Origin: a virus
Taxonomy: Duplodnaviria; Heunggongvirae; Uroviricota; Caudoviricetes
Virus record (IMG/VR): IMGVR_UViG_3300046694_000587
Length of the DNA stretch: 64,000 bases
Direction: 5' to 3' (one strand)
The notes beneath the pieces are model-generated. The model searched no databases and was not told the DNA's origin. It was given only the letters and a program-made list of their open reading frames with translations. Position numbers and translations under genes: made by a program. This document shows, one piece after another, positions 10,348-53,262 of the stretch (position 1 is its first letter; the number at the start of each line of letters is the position of its first letter).

Positions 10348-10532
10348 GGCCCCTCCGTTCAGGATAGGTAATGGACTGCCGCCTGACCGCGCGACATTGA
10401 ATTCTCGTTAATATACTATGTAATAGCACATAAGGCAACTTTGCAGACTTGCAATTTGCTGGACCCGGCGCCGAACCTGTGATATATACCGTTTAATGAT
10501 TCGCCAACGGTTTCACCGACCTATACTGACGC

Positions 10533-10604
10533 ATGCTTAACCTGACCACCACAGCCACGACCACTACCACTTCGCGAAAGTGGCGGGCGTGCTTTGTCGG
10601 CTGA
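10533..10604 (+). CDS. Thr-rich leader peptide MLNLTTTATTTTTSRKWRACFVG (attenuator leader)
   Basis: 23 codons, 8 Thr codons including runs TTT and TTTTT; starts 7 nt after the CTATAC motif; followed by terminator 10625-10656 and then the ThrRS paralog. Confidence 0.55.
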   Translation: MLNLTTTATTTTTSRKWRACFVG

Positions 10605-10624: not shown

Positions 10625-10656
10625 AAACCCGCCCACCGAGGCGGGTTTTCTTTTTC
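10625..10656 (+). terminator. attenuator terminator upstream of the ThrRS paralog
   Basis: AAACCCGCC-caccga-GGCGGGTTT followed by TCTTTTT; GTGGCGGG (10580-10587, inside the leader ORF) can pair with the 5' half of the stem as an alternative structure. Confidence 0.55.
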
Positions 10657-10671
10657 TACGCGAGCCAAAAC

Positions 10672-11862
10672 ATGAAGCACTCATACATCGAAGCAGCCCA
10701 GAAGCTTGACCTGTTCCATATCGAAGACCATTCGCCGGGCTTTGCCTGGTGGCACCCGAACGGCCTGCGCCTCATCGAAGCCCTCAAGAGCCTTATCCGC
10801 GGCGTGCATGAGCGGTACGGCTACGAGGAAGTGAAGACGCCCAATATCACGGGTGTCGAGCTGTTCGAGCAGTCTGGCCACCTCGCCAAGTTCCGCCAGA
10901 ACATGTTCGTGATGGAAGGCGCCGACGGCGAGCGTACGTATGCGGTTCGCCCGATGAGCTGCCCGAATCACATCCGCGTGTTCGACGCGCGCCGTCGCAG
11001 CTACGCCGAGCTGCCGTTCAAGGCCTTTGAGTTCGGCGAGGTCGTGCGCAACGAGCCATCGGGTAGCCTGCAGGCGCTGTTCCGCATGCGCGGCTTCTGC
11101 CAGGACGACTCGCACGTCTTCGCGATGGAAGAGCAGGTCGTCGAGGTCGTGGCCGACTACATCTCGATGTCGCGCGAGCTCTACAAGGTGCTCGGCTTCG
11201 ATGAGGTCCGGTACCAGATTTCGCTCCGTCCGGAGCAGCGCTTTGGCGAGGACGCGCTCTGGGACAAAGCCGAAGACATGCTGCGCGCGGCGTGTCAGCG
11301 CAATGGGCTCGCCTGGGTTGAAGAGGAGGGCGGTGGTGCCTTCTACGGACCTAAGCTTGAGATGCACCTCACGGACAAGCTTGGCCGCAGCTGGCAGATG
11401 GGCACGATTCAGCTTGACTACGTGCTGCCACGCCGGTTCAAGCTGGACTACCTGAGCCGCGACAACCAGCTCGAGGTGCCGGTCATCCTGCATCACGCCG
11501 TTCTGGGGTCCCTGGAGCGCTTCATCGGCGTCCTGCTCGAGCAGTACGGCGTCGACCTGCCCGGACTGCTACGGCCCATCCAGGTGGCTCTGGTGGGCGT
11601 TCGCGAGAGTGAGAGCGCGTACGTGCGTGACCTGGCTGCCCAACTGAAGTTGAAAGGGATGCGGGTGAAGTGTTTTGTGGGTGACGCGCGTCTGGGCGAC
11701 AAGGTGAAGGCGGCCGAACTGGAGCACCCGGGAGTCATCGCCATTGTCGGAGGCCGGGAAGCTGACCAGGGAAAGGTCTCCATTCGCGAAGCCGGCGGCG
11801 CAACGCGCGTCGTCGACAAGCAAGCGTTCCTCGACGAATTGCTGATGCGCTGCCAGGCCTGA
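10672..11862 (+). CDS. threonyl-tRNA synthetase catalytic core plus anticodon-binding domain; N-terminal TGS/editing domains absent
   Basis: 396 aa; colinear with E. coli ThrRS residues ~243-642; class II motifs FRMRGFCQDDSHVF and GGGAFYGPKLEMH. Confidence 0.85.
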   Translation: MKHSYIEAAQKLDLFHIEDHSPGFAWWHPNGLRLIEALKSLIRGVHERYGYEEVKTPNITGVELFEQSGHLAKFRQNMFVMEGADGERTYAVRPMSCPNHIRVFDARRRSYAELPFKAFEFGEVVRNEPSGSLQALFRMRGFCQDDSHVFAMEEQVVEVVADYISMSRELYKVLGFDEVRYQISLRPEQRFGEDALWDKAEDMLRAACQRNGLAWVEEEGGGAFYGPKLEMHLTDKLGRSWQMGTIQLDYVLPRRFKLDYLSRDNQLEVPVILHHAVLGSLERFIGVLLEQYGVDLPGLLRPIQVALVGVRESESAYVRDLAAQLKLKGMRVKCFVGDARLGDKVKAAELEHPGVIAIVGGREADQGKVSIREAGGATRVVDKQAFLDELLMRCQA

Positions 11863-11872
11863 TGCGCGTATG

Positions 11873-11905
11873 AAAAAGGCCGCTTCGATGAAGCGGCCTT
11901 GAGTT
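11873..11905 (-). terminator. hairpin terminator (T-run on the minus strand; possibly bidirectional)
   Basis: AAGGCCGCTTC-gatg-GAAGCGGCCTT. Confidence 0.5.
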
Positions 11906-11915
11906 GCTGCGTTAG

Positions 11916-12578
11916 TTACAGGTCGAGCGCGGTACCGTGCTGAACATCCTTGACGGTGATGCCACGATAGCTCAGCTGGGCATGCAGTTCCTCGATGCGG
12001 TTTTGAACCGCGCGCATCTCGGCTTCCGAGGTTGTCGGGATACGTACGCGAACGGACCAGGTCTTGTCTTCTATGGGGCTCGGGAAACAGCGGATGCTGC
12101 ACAACAAGGGCTCTGCCAGGAAGGGTGTCCTGATTTTCGAACGAACGTCCAGCCACGAAAAGCAATTGCCTTGACTCACACGGGCAACCTTTGGCCGGGC
12201 CTTGGTAACGCGCGTTGCATCAAGAACCTCCATCGCGACGTCATGGATTCGGAGAATCTCCGCTTCAACTGACTCCTTCAGGTCCTGGAAACGGCTGGCA
12301 CCCATACCCAGCAGCATTTCGGCGCGCAGTGCATACGCGCGATAGCCCAGTTGGGGAGACTCGGCCAGCAACTGCAAAAGGTTCGGATAGTGAGCGATGG
12401 CCGCTACCCAAGCCTCATACTCGGTGTCGAATTCCACATAGCTACCGCGGCCGTAGAAAAGCTTCTTCTTGCCTTGCCCGGTGTCCGTCCAGGTAATCTG
12501 GTGGTCAGCCTTGAAATCGTGGAAGCTGAAATATTTGACGTTCAGCAATGCCACCAACGTTTCAGTTATAGCGCTCAT
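11916..12578 (-). CDS. hypothetical protein (220 aa)
   Basis: long ORF; CTATAC motif (gtatag at 12612) upstream on the minus strand. Confidence 0.45.
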   Translation of the reverse strand: MSAITETLVALLNVKYFSFHDFKADHQITWTDTGQGKKKLFYGRGSYVEFDTEYEAWVAAIAHYPNLLQLLAESPQLGYRAYALRAEMLLGMGASRFQDLKESVEAEILRIHDVAMEVLDATRVTKARPKVARVSQGNCFSWLDVRSKIRTPFLAEPLLCSIRCFPSPIEDKTWSVRVRIPTTSEAEMRAVQNRIEELHAQLSYRGITVKDVQHGTALDL

Positions 12579-13490: not shown

Positions 13491-14393
13491 TCAGCCATGC
13501 GCGAGAGTGCCGGCGAATAGGGCCGCACAGCGCGCTGTGACCGCCACCGTGTAGCCGCCTTCGAGCGAGGCAACGACCGGGGCATCCAGGCTGAGCAGTC
13601 CCTTCGCGAGCCACTCATAGTCGGCGTCGACCAGGCCCAAACGACCGAGCGGGTCCGCGCGGTGAGCATCGAAGCCGGCCGAGACGACGACTAGCTCCGG
13701 CTGCCAGGCCTTGAGTGTTTCGAAGAACCCCCTCCAGGCTCGAAGAACCTCATCTCGGCTCTCGCATTTTTTGCGAAGAATGTGATTCGGCCGAGTTACT
13801 TTCTGCATGAACGCGCCCGGGTATCCTGGTTGGTACGTCTCAGCGAACAGGAAATCAGATTCCGGCTTACCCAGCAGGCCCATGACCGTTCCATTGCCCG
13901 AGTGGGTGTCAAAATCCAGCACAGCAATACGCCGTACGCCGCGCGCCTTCGCGTGAAAAGCCGCCACCAGCGCAGTGTTGACGAAGCAGAACCCGTCTCC
14001 GCCTTGATAGTCCGCGTGGTGGCCTGCGTACACGGGATTGAATGCGTGCTGGATGCGGCCGGCGAGGATGGCGTCTACCGCCTGGCAGGCAGCGCCTGCT
14101 GAGAGCCGCATGGCGCGCCAGGTGTGACGGTTCATCGAGGTATCGGGCGCCAGTTCGATGCTTTCACCCTCCCGCAGCGATTCCGAGCGTGCCAGATAGG
14201 CCAGGTATTCGGGGTGGTGTGCGCGCTCAAGCTGCTCTGCCGTCGCAAGTTCAGCGAGCTCGGGGCGCACATTGTCGAGCGCGAGAACAGCGCGTGCTAC
14301 GGTCGCGATTCGCTCTCGGTCCATCGCCGCGTGATTGGCGTGGAGGTCATGCAGGAAGATGTCGGGGTGCCAGAAAACGGCGGTCGTTGTCAT
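13491..14393 (-). CDS. histone deacetylase-family (HDAC/acetoin utilisation-like) Zn-dependent deacetylase
   Basis: 300 aa; PVYAGHHADYQGGDGFCFVN, VLDFDTHSGNG, SAGFDAHRADPLG, EGGY. Confidence 0.75.
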   Translation of the reverse strand: MTTTAVFWHPDIFLHDLHANHAAMDRERIATVARAVLALDNVRPELAELATAEQLERAHHPEYLAYLARSESLREGESIELAPDTSMNRHTWRAMRLSAGAACQAVDAILAGRIQHAFNPVYAGHHADYQGGDGFCFVNTALVAAFHAKARGVRRIAVLDFDTHSGNGTVMGLLGKPESDFLFAETYQPGYPGAFMQKVTRPNHILRKKCESRDEVLRAWRGFFETLKAWQPELVVVSAGFDAHRADPLGRLGLVDADYEWLAKGLLSLDAPVVASLEGGYTVAVTARCAALFAGTLAHG

Positions 14394-15139: not shown

Positions 15140-16606
15140 TCACGCTGCTTCTGCTGCGGACTGGCCGATGATGGCGCCAGCTGCTGCGTTGCCCGAAGCC
15201 GCGCCCACCACCGCACCTGCAGCCGCGCCGTTCTTCAGCAGCGGCGCGAAGCCTTCAATGAGCTTCTGGCCTTCCGGCGTCTGGCCGAGTGCTGCCAGCA
15301 TGCCCGTCAGCTTCGTGCCGCCCGCCGGCGTGAAGATGTCGCCGAGACGGGCCACGCCTTGCTGCATGTCGCCCGAGTTTGCGATGACCTTCAGGTCGGC
15401 GGTCTGCATGGCACGGGCCATTTCGATACCGACTTCGCGACCGGCCTTGACCTGTTCGATGGTCACCAGATACTGCTGGTAACCCGGGTTCGAGCCGATT
15501 TCTTCCGCCAGCTTGATTTGCGTGACAACCGGCGCCATCAGCATCGCCTGTTCGGCGGCGGCCGATGCTTCACCGCGCGCCTTGATACCTTCGGCATCCT
15601 TCAGCGCGGCGGCCAGCTGACCTTCAGCCTGCGTCGTCGTCGCCTGACGTTGCGCTTCTGCGCTCACGACTTGCACTTCCTTCGCGGCTTCGGCATTCAC
15701 CACTGCCACGCGCTTGTCCTGCTCGGCGCGCACGGTCGCCACATCGCGCTGAATTTCAGCGCTCCGCACTTCGTTAACACTGCGCAGGTCCATGTCGCGT
15801 TCGGCGGTGGTCTTCGCCGCCGTCTTGATGTCCTGTTGCGCCAGTTCGTTGGCGATGCCCACGGCCTTTTCCTTCTCGGCCGTACGCTGCCCGACCTGCT
15901 GCGCTGCGTCCTGGCGTTGAACGTCGACCGTACGCTGAGCGTCGATTTCGGCCAGTTCAGCGAGGCGCTTGTTTTCCGCCACGGCGACGCGCGATTCTTT
16001 GTCGATGCGCGACTTTTCCTTGGCCATCACGTTGGCGATAACCGTGCTGCCTTTGGCATCGAGTAAATTCATGAACTCGATAGTTTTCACGGTGACCACG
16101 CCCCATTGCGTGACCTGCTCCTGCACTTCAGCGGTGAACTGGTTTCCCAGCTCCGAGCGCGACTGCATGATGTGCTCGAGCGTATTCGTCGCCAGTACAC
16201 GACGCACCGCACCTTGCAGTACGGCATGCAGGTCGGTCTTCAGCGCTTCGAAAGTTGCCACGCGTTGAGCCGCAGTTTCTGCATTGTCTACCCGAAAAAA
16301 TGCAACGGCCGTGACCTCAAATGGAAGCCGTGCCATGTCATATGCTTCGTAGTCCGAAAGAGATACTTGGAAGATGCTTTCCGGGAAGCTAGAAATCGTC
16401 ACGCCTAGCTTCGGCACCCAGGTCGGGAACGCGTAGTAGGTATTGCCGGCCGGCTTGCCGCGGCCGTACGGCGTGCTCGAGCGCGTCGTTTGAACGATGT
16501 GAACCATGTTGGTCGGAACAACGCGACGCAACATGATTGCGGTCAGCAGGGCTACGAAGCCCGCGAAGACCAAAATGCCAATCAGGGCGGTCAGAATGAC
16601 GCTCAC
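15140..16606 (-). CDS. SPFH/band-7 flotillin-like membrane protein
   Basis: 488 aa; N-terminal TM helix, SPFH core, long A/E/Q-rich coiled coil, Gly/Ala-rich C-terminus. Confidence 0.7.
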   Translation of the reverse strand: MSVILTALIGILVFAGFVALLTAIMLRRVVPTNMVHIVQTTRSSTPYGRGKPAGNTYYAFPTWVPKLGVTISSFPESIFQVSLSDYEAYDMARLPFEVTAVAFFRVDNAETAAQRVATFEALKTDLHAVLQGAVRRVLATNTLEHIMQSRSELGNQFTAEVQEQVTQWGVVTVKTIEFMNLLDAKGSTVIANVMAKEKSRIDKESRVAVAENKRLAELAEIDAQRTVDVQRQDAAQQVGQRTAEKEKAVGIANELAQQDIKTAAKTTAERDMDLRSVNEVRSAEIQRDVATVRAEQDKRVAVVNAEAAKEVQVVSAEAQRQATTTQAEGQLAAALKDAEGIKARGEASAAAEQAMLMAPVVTQIKLAEEIGSNPGYQQYLVTIEQVKAGREVGIEMARAMQTADLKVIANSGDMQQGVARLGDIFTPAGGTKLTGMLAALGQTPEGQKLIEGFAPLLKNGAAAGAVVGAASGNAAAGAIIGQSAAEAA

Positions 16607-52266: not shown

Positions 52267-53262
52267 ATGTTCACTGGATTTTCTGCAATGCACGAAGGCG
52301 ATAGCGCCAAAATAGAACAAATCGACCAGGCCACCCTGGTAGCGGAGCTTCTCAAGGAGCGAAAACGTGACCGGCGCGCCGGCGTGCTGAAGTCAGCGTT
52401 CTTCGTGGCGGCGACGCTCGCCTACATCTGGTACTGGTCGAGCCTTATCAATCCGGGCGCACAAGGTGACTTCGACGCTAGCAAGCCGTACGCGTCCGTA
52501 GTGAAGATTTCGGGCGTCATCGGTCCCGACAGCGACGCGAGCTATGAGTCCATCGCACCGTTGCTCAAGAAGGCGTTCGAAGACCCCATCTCGAAGGGTG
52601 TCGTGCTCGACATCAACAGCCCAGGCGGCACGCCGGTCCAGGCGAGCCTGATTCACGACTACATCCTCGACCTGAAGGCGCGGACGCACAAGCCGGTCAT
52701 TGCGGTGGGTGAAGACATGATGACGTCCGGCGCGTACATGATTGCGGTCGCCGCCGACCAGCTCACCGTGAACCGTTCGACGGTTACGGGTTCGGTTGGC
52801 GTCATCTCCTCTGGGTTCGGCTTCACCGGCATTATGGACAAGCTCGGCATCGAGCGACGCGTCGCAACCGCAGGCAAGTCGAAGAATCTGCTTGACCCAT
52901 TCAGCCCGCAGACGGACGACGGACGCGCGAAGCAACGTGAAATCCTCACGGCCATCCACGGCCACTTCATCGACATGGTGAAGGCCGGCCGCGGCGCGCG
53001 ACTCAAGCTCGACACGCCGGGCCTCTTCGAAGGCACCGTGTGGACGGGCGAGGACGCGGTGAAGCTTGGCGTGGTCGACGAGCTGGGTGACATCCGTCAT
53101 GCCGCCCAGAAGTACATCGGCGCGGAACAGACCGTGACGGTGGCCTCGCGCAAACCGATGCTGCAATCGCTGCTGTCCAAGGTTGGAGTGAAGGTGCTGA
53201 GCTCGGCCATCGACAGCGCAGTGCAAACCCCCGCTGAAACGCCGATGGCGACGTACCAGTAA
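52267..53262 (+). CDS. signal peptide peptidase SppA (S49)
   Basis: N-terminal TM; VVLDINSPGG...SGAYMIAVAAD...GSVGVI. Confidence 0.75.
   Translation: MFTGFSAMHEGDSAKIEQIDQATLVAELLKERKRDRRAGVLKSAFFVAATLAYIWYWSSLINPGAQGDFDASKPYASVVKISGVIGPDSDASYESIAPLLKKAFEDPISKGVVLDINSPGGTPVQASLIHDYILDLKARTHKPVIAVGEDMMTSGAYMIAVAADQLTVNRSTVTGSVGVISSGFGFTGIMDKLGIERRVATAGKSKNLLDPFSPQTDDGRAKQREILTAIHGHFIDMVKAGRGARLKLDTPGLFEGTVWTGEDAVKLGVVDELGDIRHAAQKYIGAEQTVTVASRKPMLQSLLSKVGVKVLSSAIDSAVQTPAETPMATYQ

Follow-up and report, generated by a model that had tools for sequence, protein, structure and literature searches.

The window analysed here is a stretch of 64,000 nucleotides from a virus of the class Caudoviricetes (IMG/VR record IMGVR_UViG_3300046694_000587). 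On its plus strand, an open reading frame (ORF) at 10672-11862 starts with ATG at 10672, ends with TGA at 11860-11862 and gives a product of 396 aa. This product consists of the catalytic core plus the anticodon-binding domain of a bacterial-type threonyl-tRNA synthetase (ThrRS), and it lacks the TGS (N1) and tRNA_SAD editing (N2) domains. A leader with a run of threonine codons and an intrinsic terminator lie directly upstream. We suggest, with a probability of about 0.7, that the gene encodes a functional, naturally editing-less ThrRS, which belongs to a mobile clade and is under ribosome-mediated transcription attenuation. The gene and its two domains are as follows.

10672-11862, plus strand: core-only ThrRS gene (Pfam, TIGR00418, structure alignments, AlphaFold2 (AF2) model, ratio of nonsynonymous to synonymous substitution rates (dN/dS))
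10672-11562, plus strand: class II catalytic domain, aa 1-297 (PF00587, alignment to E. coli ThrRS)
11563-11859, plus strand: HGTP-type anticodon-binding domain, aa 298-396 (PF03129)

Pfam places tRNA-synt_2b (PF00587) at residues 84-292 (E 4e-41) and HGTP_anticodon (PF03129) at residues 304-376 (34.3 bits, cutoff 21). The initial annotation of this DNA, made from the sequence alone, described the product as colinear with the ThrRS core and as starting where N1/N2 would end, and both statements hold. Residues 244-614 of E. coli ThrRS (1qf6) are colinear with the window protein in a comparison with solved structures (E 1.5e-97), and the 635-aa ThrRS of Burkholderia thailandensis (locus L089) is matched over residues 240-633 at 40% identity. 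The engineered catalytic-domain constructs 1evk, 4hwo and 8wia align with it end to end (E ~1e-98), and its start is the boundary that was chosen for engineered deltaN-ThrRS. An AF2 model, built from an alignment of 38 members of the clade described below, is confident and complete, with a predicted local distance difference test score (pLDDT) of 92.8 and a predicted template-modelling score (pTM) of 0.90; a single-sequence model (pLDDT 43) was set aside. The model superposes on 1EVK, a "truncated form of ThrRS", with template-modelling (TM) scores of 0.94/0.93 and a root-mean-square deviation of 1.8 A, and on ThrRS structures in general with TM scores of 0.93-0.95.

The active site is complete. 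The zinc ligands C97, H148 and H274 (E. coli C334, H385 and H511) and the threonine-binding residues D146, Y225, K228, Q242 and Q247 (E. coli D383, Y462, K465, Q479 and Q484) are all present, and motif 2 is represented by R126/E128 ... QDDSHVF. The stretch GPKLEMH, which had been labelled motif 3, was misassigned: it belongs to the FYGPK active-site loop at residues 224-228 (E. coli Y462/K465). On the basis of the E. coli ThrRS alignment and the established class II motif definitions, motif 3 is GSLERFIGVLLE at residues 279-290, in which R283 is equivalent to E. coli R520. Near the N-terminus, the window protein has the motif KHSYIEAAQ where E. coli has RDHRKIGK.

The missing half was searched for by several routes. 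With residues 1-245 of the B. thailandensis enzyme as the tblastn query, the window and eight related loci gave a best match of only E = 0.5. A hidden Markov model of 46 N-terminal regions had no match in the six frames of the window and the relatives' loci, and the same model recovered two full-length positive controls at 1e-104 and 1e-76. The TIGR00418 thrS profile is matched from position 175 onwards (175-547 of 565). The initial annotation had proposed an alignment as a check on the absent editing domain and had seen no upstream exon or frame for the N-terminal domains; the searches agree with it on both points. An in-frame N-terminal extension is excluded because the leader ORF, the terminator and a conserved Shine-Dalgarno (SD)-like element lie directly upstream. 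There is no N1/N2 coding within the 64 kb window, the remainder of the phage genome lying beyond this search, and the window yielded no editing homologue of the bacterial N2 type, the archaeal DTD-like type not having been searched.

The TIGR00418 score only just reaches the cutoff (384.0 bits, with 383.65 required), and the match is confined to the C-terminal two-thirds of the profile, which could be expected of a decaying remnant or an annotation artefact, that is, a 5'-truncated thrS pseudogene. Against this stand a length that is conserved over 47 clade members, pairwise dN/dS values of 0.06-0.14 for the window gene and four relatives, and the conservation of the start codon, the SD element and a dedicated regulatory leader, together with the quality of the AF2 model. 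The comparative data have thus effectively refuted a pseudogene.

As the initial annotation asked, the relatives do share the truncated form. Among the best 120 database relatives, which reach down to 46% identity, lengths run from 332 to 488 aa and none is full-length. In a search of representative sequences, the five top clusters with full-length coverage measure 400-416 aa, a 292-aa cluster ranks fourth, and full-length ThrRS of ~640 aa is met only under 42% identity. The clade placement comes from a neighbour-joining tree of 178 core sequences, which puts the window protein in a clade of 48 leaves; 47 of them are N-truncated and none is full-length. All clade members keep the anticodon-binding domain. 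The equivalents of C334, H385, H511, D383, R363, E365, Y462, K465, Q479, Q484 and R520 are 100% conserved in the clade, these catalytic and zinc residues being also 100% conserved in full-length ThrRS, and at 53 positions the truncated and full-length sets share the same residue with at least 90% conservation in each. In the anticodon-binding domain of the clade, E363 (E. coli E600) and G360 are invariant. The comparison indicates that the core-only ThrRS is not a local truncation. It belongs to a large, selectively maintained clade that extends well beyond the phage lineage of the window and whose genes, in the loci compared, always came with the Thr leader. The clade is probably horizontally mobile, and it is found in giant phages and in other uncultured genomes.

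The clade has its own substitutions at positions that are ~90% conserved in full-length ThrRS, namely H243Y, G247A (former linker motif), W303F and K329R. Two further changes, N332S and R511H in Burkholderia numbering (E. coli N333 and R512), adjoin zinc ligands. At these clade-specific sites the window protein carries S96, H275, F65 and R93, with S96 and H275 flanking the zinc ligands. The substitutions next to the zinc ligands might improve the intrinsic discrimination against serine. It is possible, though doubtful, that the active site of this mobile charging-rescue cassette has been re-tuned by the near-invariant N333S and R512H equivalents, together with W303F and K329R. The editing domain would then be dispensable through better Thr/Ser discrimination or pre-transfer editing, or the enzyme would be insensitive to natural ThrRS poisons. 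If true, this would be a new solution to the double discrimination problem of ThrRS, or an inducible resistance determinant of a new kind that giant phages spread.

The substitutions beside the zinc ligands also bear on a second proposal, that the gene is a mobile, inducible spare that bypasses inhibition of the host ThrRS by obafluorin, borrelidin or toxins. There are known parallels in ObaO, BorO and the attenuator-controlled, indolmycin-resistant TrpRS1 of Streptomyces, and auxiliary resistant synthetases are likewise induced by a shortage of charged tRNA. Streptomyces trpRS1 is said, in work by Vecchione and Sello from 2010 that PMC4787780 cites, to encode a resistant auxiliary synthetase under leader attenuator control. 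The only named carrier of the present gene is a soil bacterium, Burkholderia ubonensis, and extra dosage alone could titrate a covalent inhibitor. Obafluorin producers include Burkholderia and Pseudomonas strains (PMC11252418). Like the window protein, ObaO and BorO are each an additional ThrRS copy in bacteria of the Pseudomonas and Burkholderia type. However, ObaO is full-length and lies in its biosynthetic cluster, and its resistance comes from G463S, with L489M also present (PMC11252418). The clade is core-only, the equivalents of G463 and L489 (G226 and L252 in the window protein) are Gly and Leu in 100% of its members, no biosynthetic cluster genes occur in any locus flank, and the cassette is found in very different genomic backgrounds. 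We therefore reject an ObaO-like identity, since ObaO is full-length and its G463S/L489M are absent here, and regard inhibitor bypass in general as unlikely.

N1 and N2 are typical of bacterial ThrRS and are not universal: the yeast mitochondrial enzyme MST1 and the crenarchaeal ThrRS-cat lack both. E. coli deltaN-ThrRS is said (Dock-Bregeon et al. 2000, in Cell) to charge tRNAThr and to mischarge it with serine. ThrRS constructs minus N1/N2 fold and activate threonine (PMC11252418), and deletion of N1/N2 kills post-transfer editing, the cyanobacterial T2deltaN being editing null (PMC4787780). Because N2 is missing here and in view of these published deltaN constructs, post-transfer editing in cis is expected to be absent, as the initial annotation had supposed, and the product is expected to be a ThrRS core that does not proofread in cis. 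In Anabaena, apo-T1 edits in trans for the editing-impaired T2 (PMC4787780). In the same way, the full-length ThrRS of the host could clear Ser-tRNAThr made by the core enzyme.

The initial annotation also raised the idea that the element deliberately lowers fidelity, and no evidence for this has emerged. In such a scheme of programmed mistranslation, the editing-less enzyme would be induced so that Ser replaces Thr more often in proteins of the phage or the host. The absence of N2 is compatible with it, since N1/N2 removal abolishes editing in a cyanobacterial ThrRS, and induction at Thr scarcity would coincide with a high Ser/Thr ratio. Positive evidence is lacking, however, and the feedback logic of the leader suits restored charging. 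A full-length host ThrRS is available for trans-editing, as apo-T1 is in Anabaena (PMC4787780), and strong purifying selection on a precise active site speaks against selected sloppiness. Because induction would occur when Thr-tRNAThr is low, we favour charging rescue over lowered fidelity, and consider programmed mistranslation highly improbable.

The DNA ahead of the gene contains the following elements.

10499-10527, plus strand: putative (inferred) sigma-70-type promoter, with a TATACT -10 box at 10522-10527 and, at about 10500-10505, a weak -35-like TTCGCC
10533-10604, plus strand: leader peptide ORF MLNLTTTATTTTTSRKWRACFVG, 23 codons and a stop, from a reading of the sequence and a leader scan (-139 from the gene start)
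10545-10571, plus strand: regulatory Thr-codon run, 8 Thr in 9 codons (ACC, ACA, ACG, ACT)
10581-10588, plus strand: antiterminator segment TGGCGGGC, complementary to the terminator 5' arm
10625-10658, plus strand: intrinsic terminator (attenuator), stem-loop AAACCCGCC-CACCGA-GGCGGGTTT and then TCTTTTTCTA, from a terminator scan
10660-10664, plus strand: SD-like GCGAG, 7 nt ahead of the ATG

The stem-loop of the terminator spans 10625-10648, with the T-tract after it, and is seen in both the minimum free energy and the centroid folds. The antiterminator duplex has a predicted energy of -12.7 kcal/mol against a shuffled mean of -7.0, and 3 of 300 shuffles are as strong. Masking of the Thr run leads to an equilibrium fold in which 10581-10588 pairs with 10628-10633 and the terminator is broken. 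Since synonymous Thr codons are mixed in the run, in the window as in other loci, it would read all tRNAThr isoacceptors. In the relatives, GAG or GGAG stands 7-9 nt ahead of the start codon, and we take 10672 as the true start because of this conserved spacing. For the promoter, CTATACT is invariant in a five-way alignment in which the nearby intergenic DNA has diverged, and a relative with 63% identity (L088) has a near-consensus TTGACA-17-TATACT at the equivalent place.

The leader was compared over 12 clade loci (the window, L001, L082, L084, L086, L088, L092, L094, L095, L098, L099 and L100), which range from 46 to 91% in protein identity and from 0.30 to 0.63 in locus GC content. An upstream mini-ORF with 5-9 Thr codons, near-uninterrupted and in mixed synonymous codons, is present in all 12, as is a hairpin with a T-tract after it. 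The initial annotation had spoken of conditional expression through an attenuator, and the recurrence of the Thr leader and terminator across the clade fits this well. In close relatives the stem of the terminator is kept and the loops vary, and distant relatives have other stems instead. Each of the nine folded loci has, 42-62 nt into the leader, a segment that can pair with the terminator 5' arm, and the two change together from locus to locus (GGCGGG/CCCGCC, GAGGTGG/CCACCTC, GGCTGGG/CCCAGCC and GCGGGC/GCCCGC). In the window, L082 and L086, the equilibrium fold gives up the terminator for the antiterminator once the Thr run is masked as a mimic of a stalled ribosome. A ribosome modelled at the leader stop leaves the predicted terminator intact wherever it was correctly located; the run for L084 picked a wrong terminator and is uninformative. 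On these comparisons, we read the leader as a classical ribosome-mediated Thr attenuator. The leader has no family match in Rfam at gathering thresholds and no match to Thr_leader (RF00506) even at E <= 10, and at relaxed thresholds its best match is Leu_leader, with 24 bits where 50 are required.

The proposed mechanism is as follows. A host-type promoter would drive the short leader ORF with its Thr-codon run. When Thr-tRNAThr is plentiful, the ribosome would reach the leader stop, the terminator at 10625-10648 would form and transcription would stop. When Thr-tRNAThr is scarce, the ribosome would stall in the Thr run, 10581-10588 would pair with the terminator 5' arm, and readthrough into the ThrRS gene would follow. 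Candidate triggers are Thr limitation, an insufficient or inhibited host ThrRS, or high demand in infection. The extra ThrRS, which is predicted to be active in aminoacylation, would recharge tRNAThr and so close a negative-feedback loop. The phage would benefit from a supply of Thr-tRNAThr that is buffered independently of host thrS regulation, and any Ser-tRNAThr would be cleared in trans by the host ThrRS or tolerated.

Several observations weigh against this reading. The promoter was missed by a simple scan of the plus strand and is consensus-like only. In five of the nine folded loci the terminator persists with the Thr run masked; because the equilibrium fold keeps the terminator, the switch there would rest on co-transcriptional kinetics. 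The antiterminator duplex does not stand out clearly from shuffled controls in 3-4 loci. What carries the case for an attenuator is thus the consistent position and the covariation of the segments, and not energetics alone. For the enzyme, aminoacylation by clade members is a prediction. Compared with housekeeping ThrRS, the anticodon-binding domain shows weaker conservation, with the R609 equivalent kept in only 42% of the clade, and other positions that contact the anticodon are relaxed as well; tRNA recognition could differ because of this relaxation. At the T482 equivalent, 56% of the clade has Val, and the window protein has Thr. Finally, the selective reason for carriage by a phage is not evident, because the window has no tRNA genes and the Thr content of its proteome is ordinary (5.7%). 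High Thr demand of the phage proteome was considered as a reason for carriage and is ruled out by this value.

The relaxed anticodon-binding domain would also suit a non-canonical, ThrRS-like protein, which might threonylate a carrier protein or a small molecule, or act as an RNA-binding decoy that vies with the host ThrRS for regulatory RNA and leaves translation unrepressed. Truncated paralogs of aminoacyl-tRNA synthetases often gain new roles (PMC4787780; PMC9437257). We consider such a role very unlikely here. This is because all known Thr-, ATP- and zinc-binding residues are kept, the anticodon-binding domain is present in every member, the Thr-codon attenuator couples expression to tRNAThr charging, and there are no carrier-protein or biosynthetic neighbours in the examined flanks.

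A charging enzyme is also what a separately derived case points to. The genome of a 636,363-bp uncultured phage (LR756504.1, locus L096) encodes a core-only ThrRS of 386 aa at 2480-3640, which is 40% identical to the window protein and retains the full-length-type residues PMNCP and IHRAILGS. Its ATG abuts a tRNA-Thr(GGT) gene at 2408-2479; tRNA-Asn(GTT) and tRNA-Thr(TGT) come after, in an array of nine tRNAs. No Thr-run leader was found at this locus. Because the L096 gene adjoins tRNA-Thr genes, it supports a role in tRNAThr charging for core-only enzymes in large phages. Other apparent precedents did not hold. Among the INPHARED entries for phage thrS, the Phosso gene is full-length (640 aa). 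A Vibrio "prophage" (MK672802.1, L090) has a full-length thrS-infC-rpmI-rplT order and an Acinetobacter record (CAKLQH020000014.1, L097) a full-length thrS-infC, both with the look of host DNA. In these two the thrS gene is flanked by integrases or ordinary host genes, and the records look like host chromosomal DNA that prophage predictions or bins had captured.

The window is phage DNA. In line with the phage-like element named in the initial annotation, it encodes a head maturation protease (52267-53262, phrog_53, 3.5e-42), rIIA-like, PhoH-like ATPase, DNA ligase-like, RecJ-like exonuclease and topoisomerase III-like proteins, and a protein like gp82 of mycobacteriophage L5. The ThrRS gene is part of a syntenic block of 5'-nucleotidase, 5'-3' exonuclease, DUF2828, FKBP, ThrRS, deacetylase-family, Band_7 and VRR_NUC genes. 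The block is found with ThrRS cores that are 76-91% identical on contigs of 117-571 kb, and also in four protein records of B. ubonensis, on contigs of ~640 kb; WP_060060113.1 and WP_059925518.1 are encoded on such contigs. Contigs with close relatives of the region (L001, L082, L084-L086) measure ~640 kb in several B. ubonensis assemblies, 571 and 699 kb (JGI) and 211-324 kb (ENA). The carrier is thus a Burkholderia-associated replicon of very large size, either a phage or phage-like, and it may be a giant phage or phage-plasmid of 0.6-0.7 Mb that has no cultured relative. A comparison of the locus DNA with phage and plasmid records gave weak thrS matches only and no closely related known phage. 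The core protein had no match in a scan of viral contigs, and a contig scan with the ThrRS core was uninformative, returning mostly Gaiellales ThrRS at ~43% identity and no close relatives.

Comparison with known systems helps to define what is new. The closest in form is E. coli deltaN-ThrRS (residues 242-642; 1EVK/1EVL, 4HWO), which has the same domains, boundaries and catalytic and zinc residues. That protein is engineered, whereas the window protein is natural, ~37-45% identical to it, has its own attenuator, carries the N333S/R512H changes and has a different N-terminal motif. MST1 (3UGQ, 4EO4, 4YYE) is likewise a natural ThrRS with a core and an anticodon-binding domain and no N2. It differs in being eukaryotic and organellar, with ~30% identity, TM scores of 0.88-0.91 and an N-terminal extension; it also serves its compartment as the only ThrRS and lacks a leader attenuator, whereas the window enzyme would be an inducible auxiliary copy. 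In the crenarchaeal ThrRS-cat/ThrRS-ed pairs (for example Aeropyrum pernix ThrRS-1, 3A31), the enzyme is likewise catalytic-only and another protein does the editing (PMC4787780). However, 3A31 is archaeal-type and the most distant ThrRS match (E 3e-59, TM 0.81), and the window protein is closest to bacterial ThrRS. ThrRS-cat, like MST1, is a housekeeping enzyme. The crenarchaeal partner is ThrRS-ed; here the partner would be the full-length host ThrRS. Bacillus subtilis thrZ and Anabaena T2 are likewise auxiliary ThrRS genes, expressed when the main enzyme falters (PMC4787780), and T2 is induced by zinc limitation, editing-impaired and trans-edited by T1 (PMC4787780). Unlike the window gene, thrZ (under a T-box) and T2 (under zinc regulation) are full-length and chromosomal and have no leader-peptide attenuator.

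For the regulation, the thr operon leader (RF00506), E. coli pheST and Streptomyces trpRS1 have the same logic of a cognate-codon ORF, alternative hairpins and a read-out of charged tRNA. In pheST a synthetase gene is under leader-peptide attenuation. The thr operon leader is a mix of Thr and Ile codons, whereas the window leader is a pure Thr run and controls a ThrRS gene. To our knowledge, the regulation of ThrRS is otherwise limited to a translational operator (E. coli) or a T-box (Firmicutes). Synthetase genes are also known from huge phages (Al-Shayeb et al. 2020, PMC7162821), which likewise combine a phage-borne synthetase with a very large genome; they are reported there generically, and a truncated ThrRS or a Thr attenuator is not described. 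In the searchable full text, which is thin on subscription journals, neither a core-only ThrRS clade of bacterial type nor a Thr-leader attenuator on a ThrRS gene was found described. The locus would be best described as a new, mobile, phage-borne cassette of an editing-less auxiliary ThrRS with its own regulation, which combines kinds of parts that are already known.

ThrRS is the textbook class II enzyme that needs a separate editing domain, as its zinc site cannot reject serine. Here is a ThrRS clade that has dropped this domain and yet stays under strong purifying selection. This raises the question of whether fidelity is kept or relaxed when there is no cis-editing, and of why phages invest in the homeostasis of a single aminoacyl-tRNA pool. 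It also raises the question of whether leader-peptide attenuation of synthetases is broader than the classic pheST case and under-annotated. Annotation pipelines label such genes plainly as "threonine--tRNA ligase" or as "hypothetical protein". Potentially, the cassette is a compact, self-regulating sensor-effector module for Thr-tRNAThr that could be reused in synthetic biology.

Other features of the leader and the neighbourhood may be added. The TATACT box ends 5 nt before the leader ATG in the window and ~6 nt before it in close relatives; L088 and L095 have a longer gap. Given the short spacing, the mRNA of the leader peptide may be leaderless or almost leaderless, an uncommon arrangement for a classical attenuator. 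More remote members of the cassette family, with ~50% identity, occur on a JGI contig of 1.54 Mb (L092/L093, GC 0.30), on one of 323 kb (L099, GC 0.32) and on one of 846 kb (L098); these extremely long contigs are rich in hypothetical proteins and have NAD-dependent DNA ligase neighbours, and they may be giant phages, giant mobile elements of another kind or bacteria with small genomes.

A few kb upstream of the ThrRS gene, and kept in all close relatives, lies a gene for a TROVE/Ro-like protein (3145-4524, plus strand) with DUF2828 and DUF7788/von Willebrand factor A (vWA) domains, which matches phrog_850 ("RNA-binding protein", 1e-115). This suggests an RNA-quality-control module near the synthetase. 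Downstream, the conserved syntenic neighbours are a histone-deacetylase-family gene of the acetylpolyamine/acetoin type (13491-14393, minus strand) and a gene for a 488-aa SPFH/Band_7 protein (15140-16606, minus strand). In the B. ubonensis copy these two are separated by inserted genes, which encode an MCP chemoreceptor, an MFS transporter and a D-Ala-D-Ala ligase-like protein. One further element closes the ThrRS gene on its 3' side.

11876-11900, no strand assigned: GC-rich hairpin between the ThrRS gene and the convergent ORF at 11916-12578 (minus strand), from a reading of the sequence

This hairpin has a T-run on the minus strand only and was not called by the terminator scan. We list it as a candidate terminator, which would be weak or bidirectional.

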